Positions 12,233-64,000 of a DNA stretch of 64,000 nt are shown one piece after another. This DNA is from an uncultured bacterium (GTDB taxonomy: Bacteria > Omnitrophota > Omnitrophia > Omnitrophales > Abzuiibacteriaceae): positions 345,038 through 409,037 of the forward strand of contig CAYLXA010000001.1 in the NCBI GenBank assembly GCA_964387845.1. The letters are read 5' to 3'. The notes below the pieces were generated by a model that worked only from the letters and a program-made list of their open reading frames with translations, had not been told where the DNA came from and made no database searches. The position numbers and the translations under genes were made by a program. The first letter of the stretch is position 1. Every line of letters begins with the position of its first letter.

Positions 12233-14494
12233 TTACTTCCCCTTCATTAAATTCAGCGCGCTGCCGGCCTTAAACCAGGCGACCTGCTCCTGTGTAAAAG
12301 AATGCACGAGCGGCGCGTTTTCGGTTTCGCCGTTTGCGTGCATAATCACAAGCTCCAGCAAACTTTTGGGCGCCAAAATATCAACGCCTTCGATGCTGAT
12401 GCGGTCATCCGCTTTGATTTTGTCATAATCAGACGGGTTTTTGAACTTAAGCGGCAGGAGGCCCTGCTTTTTTAAATTCGTTTCATGAATCCGCGCAAAA
12501 CTTTTTGCAATCACGGCTGCGCAGCCCAAATACCGCGGGCTCATCGCGGCATGTTCGCGGCTTGAGCCTTCACCATAATTTTCATCGCCGACCACAACCC
12601 AACGGAGGTTATTCTTTTTATAATCGCGCGCCACTTCCGCCGGTGTCATTTTAGTACCCTTTTGAAGCTGATTCAGGGCTGTGCCTTGCGCACCGGAAAA
12701 ATCATTGTTGGCTCCGAGAAACATGTTGTCTGAAATTTTATCCAGATGGCCTCGATATTTGAGCCATGGCCCGGCTGGCGAAATATGGTCCGTCGTACAT
12801 TTCCCCTTCGCTTTGAGCAGCACCGGAAGATTTTCGAAATCGCTTTCCTTCCAGGGCTTAAACGGCTCCAATTTCTGGAGGCGCTCGCTTTGCGCATCGA
12901 TTGAAACTTGCACAAAAATTCTCTCTTTTTCGGAGAGCGGCGCCAGAAATCCCGCTTCGCCTGCGGCAAATCCGCTGGAAGGAAGTTCCGGTGCTTCGGG
13001 CGGCGTCAAAAGTATTTCCTTTCCGCCGGTTTTGATTTTGTCTTTAAGCGGATTGAAATCGAGGCGGCCTGCCAGTGCATAGGCCGTCACGATTTCGGGC
13101 GAGGCGATAAAAGCCAGAGTTTCGGGATTACTATCGTTTCTCGCAGGAAAATTACGGTTAAAGGATGTAATGATCGAATTTTTCTCGCCTTTTTTGATAT
13201 CGTCACGTTTCCACTGGCCAATGCAGGGGCCGCAGGCATTTGCAAGAACCGTTCCGCCGATTTCTTCTAAGGCCTGAAGCTGGCCGTCTCGCTTAATGGT
13301 GTTTTGAATTTGGTCGGATCCCGGCGTGATTAAAAAGTAGCACTGGGCTTTAATGCCGGCTTCACGGGCCTGTTCGGCCACCTGCGCAGCGCGGCCGATA
13401 TCTTCATAAGAAGAATTGGTACAACTGCCGATGAGCGCAGCTTTGATCATCGCCGGATAACCTTTTTCTTTCACGTCCTTCGCCATCTCGGAAACCGGGC
13501 GTGCCAAATCCGGCGTATGTGGGCCCACAACATGCGGCTCTAGCGCGGACAAATCAATTTCAATCACTTCGTCATAATAAAGTTCCGGGTTTTTATCGAT
13601 TTCAGGATCTGCAGTCAGAAATTTTTTGTGCTGCTCGGCGATATCCGCAATTTCTTTGCGTTTTGTGCTGCGCAAATAAGTTACCATTCGCGAATCAAAC
13701 GGAAAAACAGAAGTCGTTGCGCCCAGCTCTGCGCCCATATTGGCGATTGTGCCTTTTCCGGTACAGCTGATAGACTGCGCGCCGGATCCAAAGTATTCGA
13801 CGATCTTATCCGTTCCGCCTTTCGTTGTTAAAATCCCACAAAGTTTCAAAATCACGTCCTTGGCAGAAGCCCAGCCGTTCAATTTTCCCTTTAAATGAAC
13901 GCCTATCAACTTCGGGCATTTGACTTCCCAGCTGAGGCCCGACATCACATCGGCTGCATCCGCGCCGCCGACACCGATCGCCAGCATGCCAAGGCCGCCT
14001 GCATTCGGCGTGTGGGAATCCGTCCCGATCATCAACCCGCCGGGAAACGCATAGTTTTCGAGCACAACTTGATGAATAATCCCCGCGCCGGGTTTCCAAA
14101 ATCCGATCCCGTAACGCTGCGCTGCGGTTTTCAGGAATTCGTAGACTTCCTTATTGGTTTGGACTGCATTGAGCGTGTCTTCTGCGGCACCGATCCGGGC
14201 TTGGATCAAATGATCACAATGAATGGTTGTAGGAACCGCGACGGAATTGCGCTGAGCCAGCATGAATTGCAGGATTGCCATTTGCGCTGTCGCATCCTGC
14301 ATTGCCACGCGGTCCGGCCTGAGTGAAAGATAGCTTTCGCCGCGCACGAAATCCTGGGATTTGAGATCTGTCACGTGCGTTGCCAGGATTTTTTCGGTAA
14401 GCGTGAGCGGCCGGGCTAATTTTTTTCTGAGAAAATCAACTTTACCTTCGGCAGTTGCCAAAAGGCTCTTAATCATAAAAAGCGCATCGCTCAT
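12233..14494 (-). CDS. acnA: aconitate hydratase (aconitase A)
   Basis: 753 aa. Fe-S ligand region IGSCTNSSYEDI, ANACGPCIGQW, SFNRNFPARNDSNPET and the swivel domain. Full-length aconitase-family match. Confidence 0.95.
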   Translation of the reverse strand: MSDALFMIKSLLATAEGKVDFLRKKLARPLTLTEKILATHVTDLKSQDFVRGESYLSLRPDRVAMQDATAQMAILQFMLAQRNSVAVPTTIHCDHLIQARIGAAEDTLNAVQTNKEVYEFLKTAAQRYGIGFWKPGAGIIHQVVLENYAFPGGLMIGTDSHTPNAGGLGMLAIGVGGADAADVMSGLSWEVKCPKLIGVHLKGKLNGWASAKDVILKLCGILTTKGGTDKIVEYFGSGAQSISCTGKGTIANMGAELGATTSVFPFDSRMVTYLRSTKRKEIADIAEQHKKFLTADPEIDKNPELYYDEVIEIDLSALEPHVVGPHTPDLARPVSEMAKDVKEKGYPAMIKAALIGSCTNSSYEDIGRAAQVAEQAREAGIKAQCYFLITPGSDQIQNTIKRDGQLQALEEIGGTVLANACGPCIGQWKRDDIKKGEKNSIITSFNRNFPARNDSNPETLAFIASPEIVTAYALAGRLDFNPLKDKIKTGGKEILLTPPEAPELPSSGFAAGEAGFLAPLSEKERIFVQVSIDAQSERLQKLEPFKPWKESDFENLPVLLKAKGKCTTDHISPAGPWLKYRGHLDKISDNMFLGANNDFSGAQGTALNQLQKGTKMTPAEVARDYKKNNLRWVVVGDENYGEGSSREHAAMSPRYLGCAAVIAKSFARIHETNLKKQGLLPLKFKNPSDYDKIKADDRISIEGVDILAPKSLLELVIMHANGETENAPLVHSFTQEQVAWFKAGSALNLMKGK

Positions 14495-36314: not shown

Positions 36315-36388
<74 letters not shown>

Positions 36389-39174: not shown

Positions 39175-39978
39175 TCACTCAGGCCGTATGGCAAACAGCA
39201 TGAATTCCGTGTGCGATACCATGCGTTGCTCCGGCCTCGTCTTCCCCGGCCGTGCCAAAATTCCGCGCACCAAAACTTCCTGCGCTTCGATCATGATAAA
39301 GCCCGCGCGCTCCAAAGCACCGGCCATCGTTTCGATCTGATTGTAAGTGGGATTGAGACTCGCAAGCCGTCCGCCCGGACGAAGTGCTTGCTTCGCATTC
39401 TCTGCTTCATGCCACGGCTCCGGAACATCCAAAACGATTGCATCCACGCCTTCATCTTCGAAAGGTTCGTGCCCGGTGCGCGTTTTGAAAGTTACGTAAT
39501 CCGCAAGTTTTGCTTTTTTCAAATTAGCACCTGCCAATTTCATAAAATCTTCACGTACATCATAACTATAAATATGTCCGTTCGGCGCCACTTGTGATGA
39601 GAGTGCGAGCGTCAGCGCGCCGGAGCCGACGCCGACTTCGATCACTCGGCTTCCGGTTCGGATTCCGCAATGCATCATCAGCACCGCGGCGTCTTTCGGA
39701 TAAATAATTCCGCTTTCGCGCCGTGCTTTCATGATAAAATCCTCGATCGTCGGATCGAGCAGCAAAGCTTTAACGTTGGACGGTTCAAATTCGATCCAGC
39801 TACCGTAGGATTTTCCGATCAAATCCTTCAGCTTGATCGGACGGCCGCAGTGAATGCTATGGGTTTTTTCGGGATCAACCGTCACATAGTAAGTTTTATC
39901 ATCATCGAACCAAATGAGGAGCGGGTCGCCGGCTTCGATTAATCTTTTAGGAGATATGGCAGTTTCCTGAGTTGTCAT
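39175..39978 (-). CDS. tRNA (adenine-N1)-methyltransferase TrmI/Gcd14-like
   Basis: IYPKDAAVLMMHCGI...VIEVGVGSGALTLAL...LDVPEPW; SAM-methyltransferase fold with TrmI-like N-terminal beta domain. Confidence 0.8.
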   Translation of the reverse strand: MTTQETAISPKRLIEAGDPLLIWFDDDKTYYVTVDPEKTHSIHCGRPIKLKDLIGKSYGSWIEFEPSNVKALLLDPTIEDFIMKARRESGIIYPKDAAVLMMHCGIRTGSRVIEVGVGSGALTLALSSQVAPNGHIYSYDVREDFMKLAGANLKKAKLADYVTFKTRTGHEPFEDEGVDAIVLDVPEPWHEAENAKQALRPGGRLASLNPTYNQIETMAGALERAGFIMIEAQEVLVRGILARPGKTRPEQRMVSHTEFMLFAIRPE

Positions 39979-40020: not shown

Positions 40021-42039
40021 ATGATCTACGACGATTTTCAGAAAAAAGCGATTGAAACGATTGATCAAAGACGCTCTTTGATCGTTTCCGCACCCACCGG
40101 CGCCGGCAAAACCGTGATAGCCGAATACGCGATCGAACAAGCGCTCGCTCATAATGAAGGCGCCATCTACACAGCACCGATTAAGGCCCTCAGCAATCAA
40201 AAATACCGCGACTTCAAAGCCAAATATGGTGACAAAATCGGCATTTTAACGGGCGACGTGTCGATCAATCCCGACGCGCCGATCTTGATCATGACCACTG
40301 AGATTTACCGCAACACTTTATTTGAAACTTCACTTTCACCGACTTCAGATCGCGCGCACGGAATAGGCGAAGGCAAGGTGAAGCCCGACCGGCTTCAAAA
40401 TACGAAATGGGTGATTTTTGATGAGGTTCATTATTTAGATGACTGGGAGCGCGGAACGGTTTGGGAAGAAGCCATCATGTTCTCGCCGCCGCATTTGGAG
40501 CTTTTGTGTTTGAGCGCCACCGTTCCCAATATTGATGAAATCACGAGTTGGATCAAAACGGTTTTAAACCGCCCGATTGAAATCATTATCGAAACTCACC
40601 GCCCCGTTCCCTTGATTCATTTGTTCCAATGCCAGGGACAAATTTTAAACAGCCAGAAGAAATTACGCGAGCAAGGCTACATGAACCGCGACGATTGGTC
40701 GCAATTCGGCGGGCGTCACGCATTCAGGCGGCGCCAGCGCGGCCACCACAACCGCAATTTCAATCACCTTCGCGCAATGCCCAACCGGATTGATAAATTG
40801 ATCGCGCATTTGAAATCAGAAAACCGGCTTCCCTGCATTTTCTTCGCGTTTGGCCGAAGGCGCACTGAAGAACTGGCGCACGAAGTGCATGTGGATTTTC
40901 TAAATGAAGAAGAACGCGGAAGAGCAGCAAAACTTTACGACGATCTCTGCATCAAATTTGGAATCGGCGATGAACAATCCGCGATGGACATGCGCGGCCT
41001 CATTGAACGCGGTATCGGATTTCACCACGCCGGCATGCTGCCCACATTAAAGGAAGTGATCGAGCAGCTTTTTACGAGCAAGCTCCTTAAAATGATTTTC
41101 ACAACCGAGACTTTCGCGCTCGGTATCAACATGCCCGCCCGCGCGGTGGTGTTTGATGAGCTCCGCAAATTCTACGGCACACATTTCGCCAATTTACGTA
41201 CGCGCGACTTCTATCAAATGGCGGGCCGCGCAGGCCGTCGAGGCATGGACAAGGAAGGTTTTGTTTATTCACGCGTCAACCCGCATCAAGTCCAGTTTCA
41301 GGAAATCGTCCGGATCATCAACGGAAAACCGGAACCCATCAACAGCCAATTCAACGCCACTTACGCGACGGTTCTCAATTTATACGCCGAACACGGCCGC
41401 GCGCTTCTTGAAATTTATCCGCGAACACTCCATCACTACCAGGCGTCCAAGAAAGGCCGCCAAAAAGCGGCGGAACTTTTGGAGCGGAAAATATTATTGC
41501 TCGGCGAAATGGATTATTTAAATGAAAAGGGATTGACCTTGAAAGGCGACTTCGCCTCCTGCCTTTACGGTTACGAACTTTTGCTCTCTGAAATGCACGA
41601 TCAAGGTTTGTTGGACGCGCAGGACCCGGCAGGGCTCGCAATTGTGCTTTCAGCGCTCGTATTTGAGCCTCGGAAAAATATTCAGCTCGATGATATGCCC
41701 AAAAAATACCGGAATTTAAATCACCATGTTGAAAGTTTCTTGCGCCGAATTCACCGGATTGAAATGAAACACCGTGTCATGCCTCTCACGAAGCAGCCTT
41801 ACTTTCATTTCGCACCGATTGTGGAAAAATGGATCCAGAAGGAAAGTTTTGACGACATTATGCGCGCAAGTCCATTGGATGAAGGTGAAGTGATTCGCTA
41901 CTTCCGGATGGTGATTCAGCTTTTGCGTGAAGTCTGGAACGCGCCGCACGCCTCAGACCGGCTCATCGCCACCGCCAAATCCGCCTTTAATCTCATCAAC
42001 CGCGACATTGTAGACGCTGAGCGGCAGTTAAGGTTATAA
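40021..42039 (+). CDS. Ski2-type DEAD/DEAH-box helicase (HelY-like)
   Basis: Walker A SAPTGAGKT, DEVH box (FDEVHYL), SAT motif, and helicase C motifs FHHAGM, QMAGRAGRRG. Confidence 0.8.
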   Translation: MIYDDFQKKAIETIDQRRSLIVSAPTGAGKTVIAEYAIEQALAHNEGAIYTAPIKALSNQKYRDFKAKYGDKIGILTGDVSINPDAPILIMTTEIYRNTLFETSLSPTSDRAHGIGEGKVKPDRLQNTKWVIFDEVHYLDDWERGTVWEEAIMFSPPHLELLCLSATVPNIDEITSWIKTVLNRPIEIIIETHRPVPLIHLFQCQGQILNSQKKLREQGYMNRDDWSQFGGRHAFRRRQRGHHNRNFNHLRAMPNRIDKLIAHLKSENRLPCIFFAFGRRRTEELAHEVHVDFLNEEERGRAAKLYDDLCIKFGIGDEQSAMDMRGLIERGIGFHHAGMLPTLKEVIEQLFTSKLLKMIFTTETFALGINMPARAVVFDELRKFYGTHFANLRTRDFYQMAGRAGRRGMDKEGFVYSRVNPHQVQFQEIVRIINGKPEPINSQFNATYATVLNLYAEHGRALLEIYPRTLHHYQASKKGRQKAAELLERKILLLGEMDYLNEKGLTLKGDFASCLYGYELLLSEMHDQGLLDAQDPAGLAIVLSALVFEPRKNIQLDDMPKKYRNLNHHVESFLRRIHRIEMKHRVMPLTKQPYFHFAPIVEKWIQKESFDDIMRASPLDEGEVIRYFRMVIQLLREVWNAPHASDRLIATAKSAFNLINRDIVDAERQLRL

Positions 42040-57440: not shown

Positions 57441-57947
57441 CTACTTTTTATACGTTGCAAACGAACTTTCAGTTTCCCAGACCGTCACGGAATGAACCGG
57501 AAATTTCTGGGACACTGCATAATCATAAATCAATTTGGCGAGGGCTTCGGCGGTCGGATTGATCGGCATTGTGTAAAAAACTTCCTTTTTTGCCTTTAAA
57601 TCGGGAATGATGGGGTCATCTTGATGTAAAAGCAGTTTATGATCTAAAACATCATTGATCCACGCTTTCATGACCCGGCCGATATCATGAAAGTCATAAA
57701 CCATGCCGCGCTTATCCAATGATTCGGAATGAAGCTCCACTTGAGCACGCGCGTTGTGACCATGCAGATTCCGGCATTTACCTTCGTAGTGAATTAGCCG
57801 GTGGCCGTAGCAGAAGTGAATTTCTTTTGTGACTGTGTACATAAGACAATAGGTTAAATAAGCGCCTTTGCCGTATTTTACCTTAAATCCATCTGAGTGG
57901 AATAGATGAGTTTTAAGTGTTGAATAGAACCGCATATTTTTTATCAT
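57441..57947 (-). CDS. queD: 6-carboxy-5,6,7,8-tetrahydropterin synthase (QueD/PTPS family)
   Basis: TKEIHFCYGHRL and CRNLHGHNA match the CxxxHGH zinc-site pattern. The true start may be the internal MYTV (57842); the N-terminal extension is unusual. Confidence 0.75.
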   Translation of the reverse strand: MIKNMRFYSTLKTHLFHSDGFKVKYGKGAYLTYCLMYTVTKEIHFCYGHRLIHYEGKCRNLHGHNARAQVELHSESLDKRGMVYDFHDIGRVMKAWINDVLDHKLLLHQDDPIIPDLKAKKEVFYTMPINPTAEALAKLIYDYAVSQKFPVHSVTVWETESSFATYKK

Positions 57948-58001
57948 AAGTCATTTATTTATAATGGGTTATGAATATTTTAACTAAAATTATGTCAAAA
58001 T

Positions 58002-58030
58002 TTGACAAACCCCATTCACCCAGCTAAACT
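58002..58030 (+). promoter_or_regulatory. sigma70-like promoter for the riboswitch leader
   Basis: TTGACA (58002-58007), 17-nt spacer, TAAACT (58025-58030). Confidence 0.45.
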
Positions 58031-58057
58031 TTTGTTGTAATTCAAAACAGTTCTTTT

Positions 58058-58145
58058 TAGGAAACGATAAAGGTAAACCAATCGAAAGATTGGGGCGCAA
58101 AGCATGAGGTCCTTAATGGATGGCTCGGCTACCGAAATTCTGAAA
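58058..58145 (+). promoter_or_regulatory. c-di-GMP-I (GEMM) riboswitch aptamer
   Basis: AGGTAAACCAATCGAAAGATTGGGGCGCAAAGC closely matches the conserved P1 core of the Vibrio Vc2 aptamer as I recall it (GGCAAACCAUUCGAAAGAGUGGGACGCAAAGC), including a GNRA loop. The 3' closing GGCTACCGAAAT matches GGUUACCGAUGG. Confidence 0.75.
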
Positions 58146-58174
58146 GTGCAACTGAAAAAATCAAGTTGTGTTTT

Positions 58175-58206
58175 CGCGACCCAATTTTTTGGGTCGTTTT
58201 TTTTTG
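58175..58206 (+). terminator. intrinsic terminator (riboswitch expression platform), ending 8 nt before the pilX-like ATG
   Basis: cgcgacccaattttttgggtcg stem-loop followed by TTTTTTTTT. Confidence 0.75.
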
Positions 58207-58213
58207 AGCAAAA

Positions 58214-59506
58214 ATGGTGAGACAAATGAAGAAAAAAATCATGAGGAAGAAGGCAAGGTTAAACCAGAAAGGCGTAGCGCTGATCTGGGTTTATCTGCTT
58301 TCTGCCTTTTTAACCACCATGATTTATAGTTTTTATAGTTTGAATATTTGGCAAACCAGAACCGATGTGGTGGACTCATCGGCTGAAATTCAAGCCTTTT
58401 ACTTGGCGGAAGCAGCGGTCGATGACATGTACAAATATATTAATGATCAAACAGAGGACGGCGCCGCAATTAGCACCACGATAAATCGCGGGCCTTATAA
58501 CCTGGGAACTAGCGGAACCTATTCGTCAACTTATGATCCAACGAACAGCATTGTTAATGCAATCGGAACTGTTTCTATCGGAAGCGGGACAATTACCAAG
58601 AAACTCTTCACAAAAATTGTTATCGGTACCCCTTATGATATTCCACCGGGAGTTCAAGCCGGCATTACTGCAGGTTCTGCAGTAGAGTTGGCCGGACTCT
58701 TGGTGGTTGACGGTCGCAATCACGATGCTGCCGGTGAAGCCATTGAAGACGGAATCCCGGGCGTTGTTTATTATGAAAATTCGGATGGCCTTACTTACGA
58801 TGATTATGTCGGCGTCGGCGGGCCCTCCACGTTGCCCAACGAACCCGGTAACCCTATTGATCCGACATCAATATCGCCAACGCCCTCGAATGCAAATTTG
58901 ACATCGCCGGAAGCCGTCTTCGGACTTTCAAACGGTGATTTGGATGCTTATAAACATTCCACCGCACCCACTTCGCCGGTGGACGGAGTTTTTTATTATG
59001 AAGCACCGCTCGGGAGTGGCGGAACCATCGATATTGACTTGGGCAGTTCGGAAACTCCGGGTTCAGGCGTACTTGTTCTTGACAACCTTCAAAACCCAAC
59101 TGCAACCGTTAATTTGACAGGTACTTTTAATGGATTGGTTATTGTTCGGGACGGCAATTACAATCTGGCTGCTGACACTTTGGTGGCTGGTGCGCTCGTG
59201 AATGTTTCAGCAAGCGCTTCCACAGTTGTTTTGTCCGGCCCTGCTTACGATCCGGATGGGAAAAATGGTGTAGCACGAATTTTGTACTGTGTCCAATGCA
59301 TCGAAGCAACAGAATTGCCCGAAGGGCTTAATAATTCTACCGTTGCGGGGATTGGTTCTTGGGTTAATTTCAGAAATGCAACAACATCCAATCCTCTTGT
59401 TTACATACCAGCATCAACACCAGGCGGAACCACCGGAACCGTCGCTGGTGGCGGCACTCTCGGAGGCGGCGGAGCCATGGGTGCATCCGGGCTTAGCGGA
59501 AAATAA
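58214..59506 (+). CDS. PilX-N-domain protein (type IV pilus minor pilin / tip-associated, adhesin-like)
   Basis: N-terminus QKGVALIWVYLLSAFLTTMIYSF resembles the PilX_N pattern (RG-x-ALI-hydrophobic). The rest is G/T/S/N/P-rich with no transmembrane helices; 430 aa. Confidence 0.55.
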   Translation: MVRQMKKKIMRKKARLNQKGVALIWVYLLSAFLTTMIYSFYSLNIWQTRTDVVDSSAEIQAFYLAEAAVDDMYKYINDQTEDGAAISTTINRGPYNLGTSGTYSSTYDPTNSIVNAIGTVSIGSGTITKKLFTKIVIGTPYDIPPGVQAGITAGSAVELAGLLVVDGRNHDAAGEAIEDGIPGVVYYENSDGLTYDDYVGVGGPSTLPNEPGNPIDPTSISPTPSNANLTSPEAVFGLSNGDLDAYKHSTAPTSPVDGVFYYEAPLGSGGTIDIDLGSSETPGSGVLVLDNLQNPTATVNLTGTFNGLVIVRDGNYNLAADTLVAGALVNVSASASTVVLSGPAYDPDGKNGVARILYCVQCIEATELPEGLNNSTVAGIGSWVNFRNATTSNPLVYIPASTPGGTTGTVAGGGTLGGGGAMGASGLSGK

Positions 59507-59784
59507 TTATCTTAACCGTCACAACCTAAATTTCCTTCTAAGAGCATGATCGTTCTGCCTGTTCTATTGTCAGCGATTTATTTCGATACCATCAATCATA
59601 TCTAACGGCTTTCTTGCCAAAATTAGACCTCGCTATTTCTTAATCTACGCAATTCTAATAATCATAACATTGCTTTAATAAAGGACTTACATTGGCTTCA
59701 CAATTTGCAAAGCGTAAAGCACGTAGTTACACTTTATATATAAGATAAAAAGCCGTATTTTAAGAACAGGTCGTTGGCGAGGAT

Positions 59785-60255
59785 TTGGCAGTGAAACAGC
59801 AAGGTTACCGAATCATGAAAAACTTGAAGAACGGCGAAAGCGGAACAACATTGATGGAAGTCCTTTTTGCACTTTCGATATTCTCTATTATCCTGATCGC
59901 GGTTGCCAGTGCATTCAATTTCGGTGCAGCCATGAACGCATCTGCCAAAAACAAAATTCTGGTTGCCACCGACGCCAAAAAAATCATGGAGCAAGTCCGC
60001 ATGGTTGCTGATTCTGTTAGTTTGGACGCAGTAACCGACGCAGACTATTGGAAAAATGTCAGCCAAACCGGCTGGCTCCAAACCGAAGTTTTTTCTTCAT
60101 CATCGCTGCCGTCCATTAATATGAATGTCACATTTCCGGAAGGAACTTCAGGTGATCCTTTATATGTTCTCGTAACGATTACTTGGGCGGAGAAAAACGG
60201 GACCAAAACCTATACGCTCCACAATAAAATCACCAAAAGGGTTCTTTTGTCATGA
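59785..60255 (+). CDS. type IV pilin-like / pseudopilin (prepilin N-terminal methylation motif)
   Basis: G-TTLMEVLFALSIFSIILIAV: Glu at +5 and a hydrophobic helix, the class III signal peptide. The start is likely the internal ATG at 59815 or the GTG at 59791. Confidence 0.7.
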   Translation: MAVKQQGYRIMKNLKNGESGTTLMEVLFALSIFSIILIAVASAFNFGAAMNASAKNKILVATDAKKIMEQVRMVADSVSLDAVTDADYWKNVSQTGWLQTEVFSSSSLPSINMNVTFPEGTSGDPLYVLVTITWAEKNGTKTYTLHNKITKRVLLS

Positions 60256-60821
60256 CAACGATACGCCGCTCTTTGATGCTCAATGAGCGTGGCTTTACAA
60301 TTTTCGAAACCTTCACCAGCATTGCTTTATTGATGTTTTTGACTGTTGTCATTTTTGGCGCTATCAAGTTATCAAGGCTCATTTTTGATCAGAGCCTCAT
60401 CAATGTTGATGTGCACGGAAATTTAAAAAGAACCGTCGCCGTTATGACACGCGACTTAGAAGAGGCTAAGCAAGGAATCCCCGGCAGCATGGGATCCTGC
60501 AACATAGATAACCCTTCCAATGTGTGCGTGCAATCAGCTGCTCTGTCTTTTAAAGTCCCAGAGTCAACCGATGTAGGTGGCACCACTTATTACAAAACAA
60601 TTAAGTATACATTCAGTTCCGTTAATAAAACAATCTCCCGCCAAGAAATCAATTATTCCGGAACGGCAGGAACAACGATTGTCATAGGCCGAAATATTAC
60701 CGGCGCAACTTTTTATGCTGAGTCTCTTCTCAATATGATTAAAATTAGCTTGGTCGGCTCAAAAAATAGCTCAACACCAACGACTGTCACAACCCAAGTT
60801 TTCCTTAGAAATAAATCGTAA
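60252..60821 (+). CDS. type IV pilin-like / pseudopilin
   Basis: ERG-FTIFETFTSIALLMFLTVVIF is the classic GFTxxE prepilin motif. 4-nt overlap with the upstream pilin gene. Confidence 0.7.
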   Translation: MTTIRRSLMLNERGFTIFETFTSIALLMFLTVVIFGAIKLSRLIFDQSLINVDVHGNLKRTVAVMTRDLEEAKQGIPGSMGSCNIDNPSNVCVQSAALSFKVPESTDVGGTTYYKTIKYTFSSVNKTISRQEINYSGTAGTTIVIGRNITGATFYAESLLNMIKISLVGSKNSSTPTTVTTQVFLRNKS

Positions 60822-60826
60822 AGCCC

Positions 60827-61789
60827 ATGAGTTCTTACCGATGGATAGTTCTTTTAGCTCTCGTGGCAACCCTTTGCCTTGAACTGCCCATCTCGGCTGA
60901 AATCAGCGATACAAAACAAGGAAAATTGATTTACACCCTGAAAAACCAGGAAGCCCCGCTTGCGGAACGTAAAACAGCTGTTCAAGAATTAGCAGCCAAT
61001 CCAACCGATGAAAGCCGGCTTATTTTTATTGAAATTCTGGAAGACCAAAATCAATCCCGAATTATTCACCAGCATATCGCTTCGGCGATCATTGCTCAAA
61101 ACGACGCCGATTTCTTTAACATACTCAAGAAAAAGCTGGTCGAAAAGAAAACGGGTTCTTATTTGCGTGAGGTCAGCCTTTCCATTCTCTGGCGCCACAA
61201 TTCAGAATCGATTTTACCGATGATTCTCGCCTTGGTGCAGGATCCATTCGAAACTTTATCTTTCCGCTCAATCGTCATCCGCTATCTAATACCCGTTGCC
61301 GGAAAACCGGAAGTTAAGGAAGTTTTGTCTAATATGATTAAAGACTCAAATGAATTACTCGCAATTAAAAAATTGGCCTCCAATGTTTTAGCCAAGAGCG
61401 GTGACCGAAATGCTTTTTTGAATATTTATCAAGATATCGCGTTTGACCGTACGCGCACCGTCAAAGAAAGAGAGGAAGCTTTGAGGAAATTCGAAGCGGA
61501 GGGGCCGGCTATTTTGGAAGAACGTTTATTCAAAATTCTTGACGATAAAAATGAAACAACCGAAATGAAAAGAATCGCATTTGAAAAGCTTTCTACCGAT
61601 CAGAACCGGGCGCGGACTATTCTGCCTCAATTAAAACGGCTGGAAAGAATGGGCCCGCTCGTAGGTATTGATGACGCGCTTCGTGAAGATCTGCGCCGTT
61701 GGATAGAAAAAACAGAAGAAGAAATCAGGGTAAGTTCCGGCCAAGAAGGCCAAGAACCTCCGGATCCGATGACAGGCCAGCCGCTATAG
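60827..61789 (+). CDS. secreted HEAT/PBS-lyase-like repeat protein
   Basis: Signal peptide MSSYRWIVLLALVATLCLELPISA. Repeated ~30-aa alpha-helical units (ERKTAVQELAANP..., IASAIIAQND..., KKLASNVLAKSGD...). Confidence 0.5.
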   Translation: MSSYRWIVLLALVATLCLELPISAEISDTKQGKLIYTLKNQEAPLAERKTAVQELAANPTDESRLIFIEILEDQNQSRIIHQHIASAIIAQNDADFFNILKKKLVEKKTGSYLREVSLSILWRHNSESILPMILALVQDPFETLSFRSIVIRYLIPVAGKPEVKEVLSNMIKDSNELLAIKKLASNVLAKSGDRNAFLNIYQDIAFDRTRTVKEREEALRKFEAEGPAILEERLFKILDDKNETTEMKRIAFEKLSTDQNRARTILPQLKRLERMGPLVGIDDALREDLRRWIEKTEEEIRVSSGQEGQEPPDPMTGQPL

Positions 61790-61790
61790 A

Positions 61791-63476
61791 TTAAAGATAA
61801 ATTGACTCGCTGGCTTCCTGCCACCAGGTTTTCGGCTCAATCTCAACGCCAATCGGCCCATAAGGAGGCGGATTGGTCTTCAAAGACACATCGTAAGCCC
61901 AATTGCGGGCCGGGGCCGTATAATTGTTTCCGCCGTATGACCATTGCCCGGTTGCGACTTGGCTGTCCCACAAATTAATGAATGCGCCGCTGATATTGGC
62001 ATTGCGGCCGCTCCAATTCTCGAGAAATCTGGGATAATTCTCAAGCCCTCCGCTATACACTGAACCGCTCGTTTGGACAATGCCGCTGATAAACCCCGCA
62101 TTTACCGTCGTGTCGGTCGCATTGCGGTTGCTGAAGCTGGTATTGGCATCACTCCAATTATTGGATAAAATATTCATAGCATCGGAAATTAACCCAACCG
62201 ATTTTTTATTGACCGTATTAAAATCACCCTGTACATACAACGGATTGTTGGTCACAACCGCCAAACCTCCGGCATATCCAGAAGGGCCGATTTCGGAACC
62301 ATTGACGAGCCGAATCCCGTGAGAGGAAGCGGTGCTTTGCCCGGTTGCCGGAACGGCATCTGTCCTGGTTGCGTAAATCAATCCGTTAGACGGGAAATAG
62401 CCGGAAGCATTTAACTTTTGAATGTCAATCTGTGTGACAATCACATTATGCGAAGCATTTTCTCGGTAATTGCGAAACTGCATCTGCGACACAGTTCCTG
62501 CCGGAAGCGAGCCCGTAATGTTTGTACCGCTTGAATTGTAAACCTGGCCGTCGATCACCCGCAAGCCGGCATGCGTATCATAAAACCCGCCGGGCTGGAT
62601 TGACGGAATTGTAACAGGCTGCACATATTGAACGCCGTGCGGTGCGCTCTGCACCGTTCCGCTCCAAGTGGAGGTTGCCAGATTGGCCCAGTTGGCGTTT
62701 GTGCTATCGAGTCTGGGACTTGTGGTCATCACCGGAAAATTGGTGGTACTTCCCTGTTTAATTCTTACGGTTCCGGCAGGCATGACACTGGGATCATCCT
62801 TACGCGCACGCGAAAAATCATGGGTAGCATGGATAGAATTAACATCCAGCGTTAACGTCCTCCCAGATTCGGCGCCGAGATGGATGTTGCCGTTGGCGTG
62901 CATATCTCCGGTCATCGTCATATTGGCGCCAGGCTGGACTTCTAAATCCGAATTGTAAAAAACGGAATACGAAAAAATACTCGTTTGTTTGAGTGAAGCA
63001 ATTTGATGCACGGTTGAGCTTGCCTGAATCGGGAAAAGCGACGCCAGAGCACTATTGTCCGGATGGCTGGATCTGACAATTACCTCAAAATCCTGGACAA
63101 CCTTTTGAAAGCCGCTTTCTGAAAGCAAATAGGTCGGGCATTGGCTTAAAGTAGTTGAAGGATTTGTCGGCGGTGCACAAACTACCCGGTAAAACCCGGA
63201 CGTAACGCCGTCAGCGTAAGTAAATTGATACTCCTGGTTGGGCGCAATGCTGTTTAAATCAAAATTGGCAATCCGGTCCGCCAAATGAAAAAGCGCACGC
63301 TCCATCACGCCCTGGCTGGTGTGATAAGAAGCGACTTTCATTTGATTATAACGCTGCATCCGGACTTCCTGAATCTGCTGAATGAGGGAAACCGCGGCAA
63401 AACTTTCCAGAACGGCCCCCAACAAAACGACTGATATTAATACGAACCCGCCCTTTTCATTTTGGACCTGTCTCAT
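61791..63476 (-). CDS. large PilX-N-like N-terminus, S/T/N/G-rich putative pilus-associated adhesin
   Basis: Start refined to MRQVQNEKGGFVLISVVLLGAVL. About 560 aa, low-complexity extracellular-type composition. Confidence 0.45.
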   Translation of the reverse strand: MRQVQNEKGGFVLISVVLLGAVLESFAAVSLIQQIQEVRMQRYNQMKVASYHTSQGVMERALFHLADRIANFDLNSIAPNQEYQFTYADGVTSGFYRVVCAPPTNPSTTLSQCPTYLLSESGFQKVVQDFEVIVRSSHPDNSALASLFPIQASSTVHQIASLKQTSIFSYSVFYNSDLEVQPGANMTMTGDMHANGNIHLGAESGRTLTLDVNSIHATHDFSRARKDDPSVMPAGTVRIKQGSTTNFPVMTTSPRLDSTNANWANLATSTWSGTVQSAPHGVQYVQPVTIPSIQPGGFYDTHAGLRVIDGQVYNSSGTNITGSLPAGTVSQMQFRNYRENASHNVIVTQIDIQKLNASGYFPSNGLIYATRTDAVPATGQSTASSHGIRLVNGSEIGPSGYAGGLAVVTNNPLYVQGDFNTVNKKSVGLISDAMNILSNNWSDANTSFSNRNATDTTVNAGFISGIVQTSGSVYSGGLENYPRFLENWSGRNANISGAFINLWDSQVATGQWSYGGNNYTAPARNWAYDVSLKTNPPPYGPIGVEIEPKTWWQEASESIYL

Positions 63477-63495
63477 GACGAAGCCCTCCTTTTGG

Positions 63496-64000
63496 TCAAT
63501 TCCTGACCTGCACAATATTCGATAATGTCAAAGAATGAGTCCTGTTTTCAGTAGTCGTCGTTTTTTGTGCGGTTAAGCCAATCTCAATTTCATCTGCATT
63601 CAAATTAACATTCATCGTGTTGTCCCGAAATAAAACGGTTTGAATATGATTCCCCACAATCCGGCCCGCTTCGCTTGGTGTCGAGACAATCAGTTGAGAA
63701 ATTCCATTCGCCGTAGAAACTGAATACGTATAAGTACGGCGGCAGATGTTATTAACGCACAAATTGGTTCCGGGGGTACTATTGCATTGATTGTCGCAAT
63801 CAATACTGTTTGAGCATGTCTGCGGCGCGGTTCCGCTTGTCACATCGGCAAATGCCGAGCAAGCTGCACCCGATAAAAAGAGCGGTAAATCCAGCGTGAT
63901 TTGATTATTGTTTGGCGATGCCGGGATGGTGATGGTTGACCGGCGTGCTTTTCTGAGCGCAACCGTCACAGACTGGAGCGCGCGCCTTGCATTTCTTTGA
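63496..64000 (-). CDS. partial secreted Cys-rich protein (N-terminus beyond window edge), part of the pilin-like cluster
   Basis: The ORF-track M at 63969 is a GTG, and the frame stays open to position 64000. Cys-rich segment CSNSIDCDNQCNSTPGTNLCVNNIC. Confidence 0.35.
   Translation of the reverse strand, partial: QRNARRALQSVTVALRKARRSTITIPASPNNNQITLDLPLFLSGAACSAFADVTSGTAPQTCSNSIDCDNQCNSTPGTNLCVNNICRRTYTYSVSTANGISQLIVSTPSEAGRIVGNHIQTVLFRDNTMNVNLNADEIEIGLTAQKTTTTENRTHSLTLSNIVQVRN

Follow-up and report, generated by a model that had tools for sequence, protein, structure and literature searches.

The stretch analysed here, hereafter the window, comprises 64,000 nucleotides (nt) of contig CAYLXA010000001.1 (positions 345,038 to 409,037, forward strand) from an uncultured bacterium of the phylum Omnitrophota. 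On its plus strand, a sigma-70-type promoter (58002–58030), a 5′ leader (58037–58062), an aptamer of the cyclic di-GMP (c-di-GMP)-I clan, also called GEMM (58063–58137), a 34-nt intermediate hairpin (58142–58175), and an intrinsic terminator (58176–58205) precede gene 1 (58226–59506), which encodes a minor pilin of the PilX/ComZ/GspK type. The Rfam scan at gathering thresholds covered the whole 64-kb window and gave two matches, namely, one tRNA and one riboswitch aptamer; a permissive scan of 57900–58300 found only noise matches beyond the aptamer. A preliminary description of this DNA had read the region as a transcriptional c-di-GMP riboswitch in front of a pilin-like operon. The aptamer, promoter, terminator, and pilin-like genes were all verified, but the reach of the control past gene 1 is uncertain. 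From the folding calculations described below, we propose that the element is a class I (GEMM-I) transcription-termination riboswitch that probably acts in the OFF direction, i.e., shuts off gene 1 at high c-di-GMP.

The promoter consists of a −35 hexamer TTGACA (58002–58007), a 17-nt spacer, and a −10 hexamer TAAACT (58025–58030), and it matched the consensus at 10 of 12 positions in the promoter/terminator scan, in agreement with the promoter proposed previously. The predicted transcription start is at approximately 58037. The gene 1 protein is rare, with four relatives among 5.8 billion clusters, and a search of genome contigs with gene 1 gave no relative. The contigs of the relatives show the same gene order as the window (AddA-AddB-QueD on the minus strand, a gap, and the pilin-like gene cluster). 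Four lineages were compared: the window, L002, L006, and the distant L007, whose gene 1 protein is approximately 30% identical to that of the window. The promoter hexamers are kept in L002, L006, and L007 (TTGACA-N17-TAGACT in L007), and the promoter, aptamer, and terminator are kept upstream of every gene 1 orthologue with available DNA, including that of the 30%-identity protein. The segment from the promoter through the leader to the terminator shares 94.2% identity with L002 and 87.9% with L006, whereas the corresponding values are 67–68% for the gene 1 coding sequence and 54–72% for the flanking spacers. Judged by these identities, the riboswitch leader is the most conserved DNA of the locus.

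The aptamer at 58063–58137 matched the Rfam model RF03167 with 62.9 bits (E = 1.7e-12) over model positions 1–80 of 80 in a cmscan search, and it falls inside the segment 58058–58145, where a GEMM-I core had been recognized by eye. The motifs on which that recognition was based (AAACC, CGAAAG, GGG.CGCAAAGC, and GGCUACCGAAA) are present in the sequence. A search with Rfam had been suggested as a check, and it returned a significant match within the clan, but the best model was RF03167 (c-di-GMP-I-GGC, an orphan variant with a gathering score of 59) and not RF01051. A second model of the clan also matched the window above its own gathering threshold, with a lower score that clan competition kept from display; this model was very probably RF01051 (gathering score, 35 bits).

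The aptamer folds into a three-way junction supported by covariation, in which helix P1 (C58065–G58134 and G58066–C58133) closes the P1b and P2 hairpins. P1a is formed by G58073–C58098 and the wobble pair U58074·G58097, P1b by 58078–58083 with 58088–58093 around a GAAA tetraloop (58084–58087), and P2 by 58101–58112 with 58118–58130. Searches of genome and metagenome collections with a riboswitch pattern added one Myxococcota metagenome-assembled genome (MAG) and five metagenome contigs; these were too few, and the pattern left them too little freedom, for the 3′ half of P2 to gain any covariation. The covariation alignment contained eight distinct aptamers and was scored on the Rfam structure. 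Paired nucleotides occupied 94.3% of the cells, as opposed to 25–38% when the partners were slid, and double changes were found in eight pairs, a result equaled by none of 500 shuffles. In P1b, all six pairs covary, which bears out the conservation expected of this hairpin in the preliminary description; the same expectation for P2 met with a 3′ half that was fixed by the search pattern, so that no variation was possible in this helix.

The positions corresponding to the ligand contacts are G58072 (G20), A58099 (A47), and C58132 (C92), and those of the interhelical pair are C58096 (C44) and G58123 (G83). All five columns are invariant across the eight aligned aptamers; the nucleotides themselves are seen in the sequences, and the tertiary C44–G83 pair is predicted. 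G20, A47, and C92 are the ligand contacts of Vc2, and the interhelical C–G pair is universal in GEMM RNAs (PMC4744006). The P1b tetraloop is of the GNRA type throughout, being GAAA in the window and GAGA, GUAA, or GCGA in the relatives. P2 is short in the window and its relatives, and it lacks the CUAAg...uAuG tetraloop receptor of the RF01051 consensus. GEMM RNAs without the receptor are known, and the 11-nt receptor is not needed for membership. By its fold, pocket nucleotides, and covariation, the aptamer is a member of the c-di-GMP-I (GEMM-I) class, and the element is best read as a standard c-di-GMP sensor, the ligand being deduced from the sequence.

The intrinsic terminator predicted in the preliminary description was recovered at 58176–58205 by the terminator scan. 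It consists of GCGACCCAA-UUUU-UUGGGUCGU (58176–58197), in which 58176–58184 and 58189–58197 form a GC-rich stem of nine pairs around the UUUU loop, followed by a tract of eight to nine U residues to 58205. Its predicted folding free energy (ΔG) is −14.2 to −14.8 kcal/mol in the window and −14.8 to −17.4 kcal/mol across the four lineages; these and all other folding results are computational and use nearest-neighbour energetics. The terminator is kept in L002, L006, and L007, in the last with a compensatory change from A–U to G–C, and it lies clear of the P1 3′ strand. Between the aptamer and terminator, the intermediate hairpin (58142–58175; ΔG, −8.3 kcal/mol) has 12–14 base pairs (bp), including three consecutive wobble pairs, and a variable loop. 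The window, L002, and L006 have the same stem sequences with different loops (GAAAAAAUC, GAAAAUUUC, and GAAAGAUAC); in L007, the hairpin is absent and a 21-nt linker takes its place. As possible roles for this hairpin, we consider those of a pause site, spacer, or folding insulator.

Upstream, the terminator 5′ arm and loop (58176–58190) pair best with the aptamer core, which lies at 58084–58098 in the window, and the partner is the same in all four lineages, namely, the GNRA loop, the P1b 3′ arm, and the GGGRCGC junction strand. The ΔG of this antiterminator duplex is −16.4 to −18.5 kcal/mol in the four lineages (−18.4 kcal/mol in the window), and only 0–9 of 1000 shuffled arms paired as well; the duplex is thus as strong as the terminator hairpin. 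In forced folds at the decision point, when the transcript extends only through the 5′ arm and loop, the antiterminator ensemble is 0.4–6.3 kcal/mol more stable than the apo aptamer. An equilibrium scan along the growing transcript of the window showed P1b fully formed up to 58182, the antiterminator prevailing with a probability of 0.95–0.99 at 58188–58194, and the terminator dominant from 58197. The same pattern was obtained for L007, with an antiterminator occupancy of 0.93–0.97. On direct paths, the estimated barrier to entering the antiterminator from the apo hairpins was 4.4 kcal/mol, and that to leaving it for the terminator was 10.3 kcal/mol. Taken together, the energy and barrier calculations suggest a balanced competition between the antiterminator and terminator.

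These results can be assembled into a mechanism. Transcription would begin at approximately 58037 at the conserved sigma-70-type promoter, and the nascent RNA would fold into the aptamer with its G20/A47/C92 pocket. Without ligand, the three-way junction would stay loose, and the emerging terminator 5′ arm and U-rich loop (58176–58190) would invade the aptamer core (58084–58098), taking up the GAAA loop, P1b 3′ arm, and GGCGC junction strand in a 14-pair antiterminator. RNA polymerase would then read through into gene 1, and possibly onward into genes 2–4, which encode two pseudopilins and a HEAT-repeat protein. Binding of c-di-GMP would lock the junction together with P1a/P1b and hide the toehold for invasion, so that the terminator would form and transcription would stop. 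Because the antiterminator uses the strands of the ligand pocket itself, ligand binding and antitermination should be mutually exclusive, and c-di-GMP would therefore be a terminator-promoting (OFF) signal.

Several points weigh against this proposal. The OFF direction comes from nearest-neighbour thermodynamics, which ignores tertiary structure, Mg2+, the binding energy of the ligand, and the kinetics of the polymerase. The antiterminator partner lies approximately 80 nt upstream within the stable local hairpin P1b, and the usual switching strand in most characterized riboswitches is the 3′ strand of P1. The complementarity is partly forced, given that ligand binding accounts for the conservation of the GGGRCGC core, which would be matched to some extent by any CCC-containing arm rich in GC. 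A comparison of the window with L007 revealed no clean compensatory change in the antiterminator; a purine–purine mismatch is kept, and there is one extra mismatch. The 34-nt intermediate hairpin, kept in three lineages, has no role in the OFF mechanism. The score of the parent model RF01051 on the window was, moreover, not displayed. Finally, the polarity of class I riboswitches varies, with Bc2 being an ON switch and Vc1 and Vc2 working in opposite directions (PMC6366702).

The same aptamer and terminator could also be wired as an ON switch, which we rank second, behind the OFF switch, and regard as unlikely, though less so than any of the other alternatives. The starting point is the leader, in which 58048–58062 (CAGUUCUUUUUAGGA) is able to pair with 58138–58154 and so extend P1 (ΔG, −9.2 kcal/mol; seen in folds with the aptamer forced), and this is also the part of the leader with which the 5′ arm of the intermediate hairpin can pair alternatively. 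By stabilizing the extended P1, c-di-GMP would strip the intermediate hairpin of its 5′ arm, and the freed 3′ arm (58163–58175) would form a GUUGUG/CGCGAC hairpin (58165–58180) with the start of the terminator 5′ arm, which would hold back the terminator and let the polymerase read through. On this scheme, the tip pilin would be induced at high c-di-GMP, like pilA1 in Clostridioides difficile. In accordance with such a relay, the extended P1 is predicted to be transiently dominant (probability, 0.95–0.99) for transcript ends at 58155–58167, the terminator scan did pick up the 6-bp small hairpin, and the perfect conservation of the intermediate hairpin stems in three lineages suggests a function. 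Type IV pili and adhesion are, moreover, commonly induced by c-di-GMP, and class I ON switches such as Bc2 exist (PMC6366702). In the other lineages, the extended P1 shows a one-sided change from G·U to A–U in L006, and L007 has an analogous extension of 7 + 5 bp with a different sequence. The small hairpin, however, is weak (ΔG, −4.8 kcal/mol versus −14.2 to −14.8 kcal/mol for the terminator), its probability never exceeds 0.11 in the cotranscriptional scan, and it covers only five of the nine nucleotides of the terminator 5′ arm. The extended P1 is also thermodynamically compatible with the terminator. Furthermore, the intermediate hairpin and hence the whole relay are absent in L007, although the aptamer and terminator are kept there, as is the core antiterminator complementarity.

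Assuming the OFF direction, the closest known systems in probable mechanism are Cd1 and the other class I riboswitches of C. difficile. This organism has seven functional class I switches, including Cd1 (Cdi-1-3), in which the aptamer is followed by a terminator and c-di-GMP causes termination (PMC6366702). Their targets are flagellar and protease genes and not, as here, a pilus-tip minor pilin, and they switch through a strand adjacent to P1, whereas the antiterminator proposed here is made from the P1b 3′ arm and junction within the aptamer core; the OFF direction of the window element is, in addition, a computed one. In its biological theme, i.e., c-di-GMP control of type IV pili through a terminator in the 5′ untranslated region (UTR), the element resembles Cdi-2-4, the class II riboswitch upstream of pilA1 in C. 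difficile, which gates type IV pilus genes with a terminator and shows partial read-through downstream (PMC6366702). Cdi-2-4 is, however, an ON switch of class II for a major pilin, as opposed to a class I element with a predicted OFF direction for a tip minor pilin. With Vc2 and the RF01051 family, the element shares the three-way-junction fold, G20/A47/C92, the interhelical C–G pair, the GNRA loop on the first hairpin, and the position in the 5′ UTR of a cell-surface or motility gene; it differs in its short P2 (10–11 bp with a loop of 5–7 nt) without the 11-nt tetraloop receptor. The class I riboswitches of Vibrio cholerae are also not termination based (PMC6366702), whereas the window element has an intrinsic terminator.

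The assignment to RF03167 raises the question of whether the aptamer truly belongs to the GGC variant and senses a ligand other than c-di-GMP. In favor of this, RF03167 was the top-scoring model and exceeded its gathering score in the window (62.9 versus 59) and in every orthologue. An aptamer was found in all seven orthologous loci with RF03167 as the best model (61.1–73 bits), and the aptamer of L007/L008 reached 73 bits despite the approximately 30% identity of the gene 1 protein. The aptamers assigned to this model above the gathering score lie at 58063–58137 in the window, 5849–5924 in L002, 4022–4097 in L006, 1087–1163 in L007, 423–497 in L009, 1192–1266 in L011, and 91–169 in L013. The nucleotides at the columns that set the variant consensus apart tell otherwise. 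The RF03167 consensus reads CGC-G-AAgC and GcU-G-Ccg, and the window reads CGC-A-AAGC and GCU-A-CCG; thus, A58099 (A47 column, model position 37) and A58131 (A91 column, model position 74) replace the two G residues of the variant. Both columns hold A in the window and every relative, including all the aptamers just listed, which is the canonical c-di-GMP-I state. Compared with the RF01051 consensus as seen in the alignments of two other loci (AAaGGCAAA...GACGCAAAgCc...GcUgCCgaa), the window agrees at the diagnostic positions. We take the name GGC to refer to positions 20, 47, and 92, and the correspondence between the columns and the name is likewise presumed.

The likeness to RF03167 lies in the top score, in a P1 of consensus ACGA...CCGAA, and in a P2 that is short. 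In RF01051, no pairs are modelled in the P1 region, and P2 is longer and includes the tetraloop receptor; RF03167 probably outscores this model because it models P1, with the consensus that is matched here, and a short P2, features that these sequences have in common. By its pocket sequence, the window aptamer is not a member of the variant, and we consider it very improbable that the RNA senses a different ligand on this account. Equally improbable is sensing of 3′3′-cyclic GMP-AMP (3′3′-cGAMP), or of both dinucleotides, as in GEMM-Ib. The fold is the same, and some natural GEMM-I RNAs are bispecific (PMC6140456). Recognition of cGAMP is, however, tied to A at position 20, and wild-type Vc2, which carries G20, selects against this ligand (PMC6140456); the window has G58072 at this position, which is invariant across the eight aligned sequences. 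The defining nucleotides of the GGC variant and of the cGAMP subclass were both looked for in the window, which carries neither. Competition within the clan thus labels canonical aptamers as “GGC,” including that of the Myxococcota MAG, and automated annotation would mislabel them. Studies that mine GGC matches for the ligand of the variant risk being misled by such canonical aptamers.

That the region instead encodes a 69-residue antisense protein (58016–58225, minus strand), with the RNA match being incidental, is the least plausible reading by far: an open minus-strand frame with a TTG start exists, but in L002 and L006 it runs into a stop because of a 1-nt indel in the P2 loop, the frame in L007 is different and shorter, the substitutions are compensatory for the RNA helices, and the Rfam match has E = 1.7e-12, so that the earlier suspicion of a spurious open reading frame (ORF) was justified. 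A 38-residue gene call in L006 (4076–4192, plus strand) is likewise spurious and overlaps the 3′ half of the aptamer and the terminator.

Related aptamers were also observed in L009 (423–515; the Myxococcota MAG JAKLJY010000001.1, 67% GC) and L011. The aptamer of the 67% GC genome has no terminator, and its P1 3′ strand runs directly into a Shine–Dalgarno sequence and start codon (CCGAAGGAGAUGGACAUG). This arrangement suggests the same aptamer subtype on a translational platform, before an unannotated secreted protein. A general association of the aptamer with pilins was not supported by these loci, as the aptamer of L012 precedes a CAP-domain protein and that of L009 precedes unannotated secreted proteins.

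Gene 1 (58226–59506) probably starts at ATG 58226. The preliminary description had placed the start at ATG 58214; that codon exists in frame, but ATG 58226 is favored because it is preceded by GGUGAG (58216–58221), the probable ribosome-binding site, and because the N-termini of P0004, an orthologue called in ENA, and of the L007 protein (P0005) align there. The protein has no match in Pfam or NCBIfam. A profile search collected approximately 176 remote relatives, a few of which weakly match PilX_N. An AlphaFold model built from an alignment of 55 sequences had a pLDDT (predicted local distance difference test) of 87.4; an earlier AlphaFold2 model from five sequences (pLDDT, 46.7) was discarded. 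The model consists of a 66-residue N-terminal helix, a four-stranded sheet, a large β-rich insert, and a returning last strand. In a Foldseek search, the top match was ComZ (6QVI, E = 4.7e-7), followed by ice-binding proteins, and the model also matched the minor pilins GspK and PilX. The sequence identity to relatives of the ComZ/GspK/PilX type is 11–12%, and the mature N-terminus (G↓VALIW) lacks Glu5, as in GspK and PilX. On the basis of this model, we assign gene 1 to the minor pilins of the PilX/ComZ/GspK type, with an ice-binding-like β-solenoid inserted before the last strand.

ComZ of Thermus thermophilus is a pilin with a β-solenoid insert for which a location at the pilus tip has been argued (PMC6561018), and cyanobacterial PilX proteins, including HpsA, have the same combination of pilin and β-solenoid (bioRxiv 10.64898/2026.02.12.705559). 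Gene 1 resembles ComZ (6QVI), GspK (3CI0), and PilX/HpsA in the interruption of the pilin fold by a β-solenoid and in the lack of Glu5, and also in its surroundings, which include a GspI/PilV-like gene and other pseudopilin genes as well as an HpsA-like paralogue in the same locus. It differs from them in its low identity and lack of Pfam or NCBIfam matches, and we do not attribute their DNA-binding or exopolysaccharide roles to it. To our knowledge, no riboswitch control of a ComZ/GspK/PilX-type gene has been reported.

Three further plus-strand genes follow. Gene 2 (59815–60255) encodes a minor pseudopilin of the GspI/PilV/HpsB type with the prepilin motif NGESG↓TTLMEV; its matches (NCBIfam gspI, E = 3.9e-6; PilV, 4.4e-5; HpsB, 3.3e-4; Pfam N_methyl, 3.9e-4) are all below the curated cutoffs. 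Gene 3 (60252–60821) is pseudopilin-like, with the prepilin motif NERG↓FTIFE and a weak match to ComGE (E = 0.016). No match was found for genes 2 and 3 in a sequence search against Protein Data Bank structures. Judged by a prepilin-type N-terminus, in which Glu5 is a feature of core pilins and is missing in the GspK/PilX type, and by a pilin fold, the products of genes 1–3 belong to the type IV pilin/pseudopilin superfamily. Gene 4 (60827–61789), the last of the plus-strand set, encodes a secreted HEAT-repeat protein (Pfam HEAT_2, E = 1.8e-4, below the cutoff) and is syntenic in L002–L004.

The 300-nt gap between genes 1 and 2 contains a promoter-like block, TTGCAA-N17-TACACT (59705–59733, plus strand), that is kept in the four lineages; its counterpart in L007 (approximately 2560–2600) reads TTGAAT-N17-TAGACT. 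The promoter/terminator scan of the gap called no promoter and no terminator after gene 1. The block resembles the riboswitch promoter and also the region upstream of the convergent operon described below (L002, approximately 12435–12470, minus strand: TTGCAA-N18-TACGCT). It is possibly an internal promoter for genes 2–4, and the resemblance suggests that a shared promoter type drives both pilin sets. Because this conserved block precedes gene 2, gating by the riboswitch is certain for gene 1 only, and its reach into genes 2–4 is uncertain.

Convergent to these genes, a second minor-pilin set occupies 61791–63969 on the minus strand and continues past the end of the window. It comprises an HpsA-like gene of the PilX type (61791–63515; NCBIfam EPS_HpsA, E = 5e-28, partial match) and, upstream of it, a gene for a pilin-like protein. 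The complete set is seen in L002 (9517–12389, minus strand), in which the N-termini are G↓FTLVE and G↓FSLLE, those of two canonical prepilins, and GG↓FVLIS. Rfam scans of the whole window and L002 revealed no riboswitch for the convergent set; a second riboswitch ahead of this operon was considered and rejected, as Rfam found no other match in L002. The locus thus contains two alternative PilX-type tip modules, a ComZ/GspK-like one behind the riboswitch and a convergent HpsA-like (“EPS-type”) one without a riboswitch.

Some observations were made elsewhere in the window. The QueD/PTPS ORF (57441–57947, minus strand; 168 residues from 57947) is probably overlong, as its orthologues have 133–139 residues, which would put the start at MYTVTK, at approximately 57842; a block in the queD 5′ region (approximately 57870–57905) is kept in L002 and L006 and matched no Rfam family. 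The tRNA gene (36315–36388, plus strand; 72.2 bits), which is unrelated to the riboswitch, has an anticodon that was read by eye as CCG and would make it a tRNA-Arg. A Ski2/HelY-like DEAD-box helicase with a DSHCT domain (40021–42039, plus strand) adjoins a GCD14/TrmI-type tRNA methyltransferase (39175–39978, minus strand), and this pair may be informative for taxonomic placement.

Riboswitches for c-di-GMP before motility, adhesion, and pilus genes are well known, and the element described here does not change the field in this respect. Specific to it are the tip-type minor pilin as the target, apparently an antiterminator made from the aptamer core, the neighboring tip module without a riboswitch, and the assignment to a variant model. 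It ties c-di-GMP directly to a tip-type minor pilin and thereby gives a regulatory context to an uncharacterized family of approximately 176 proteins. An antiterminator built from the ligand-binding core, and not from the P1 strand, would be a further unusual feature. We also raise, as a speculative and rather doubtful idea, that the riboswitch is a c-di-GMP-controlled selector of the minor-pilin priming complex that caps the type IV filaments. If this is true, high c-di-GMP would stop production of the ComZ-like tip and leave the HpsA-like tip, associated with polysaccharide or adhesion, to prime assembly, so that the function of the pilus, and not its abundance, would be switched at the tip subunit. 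With one tip module under riboswitch control and one without, the locus offers a testable case of a second messenger choosing between pilus tips.

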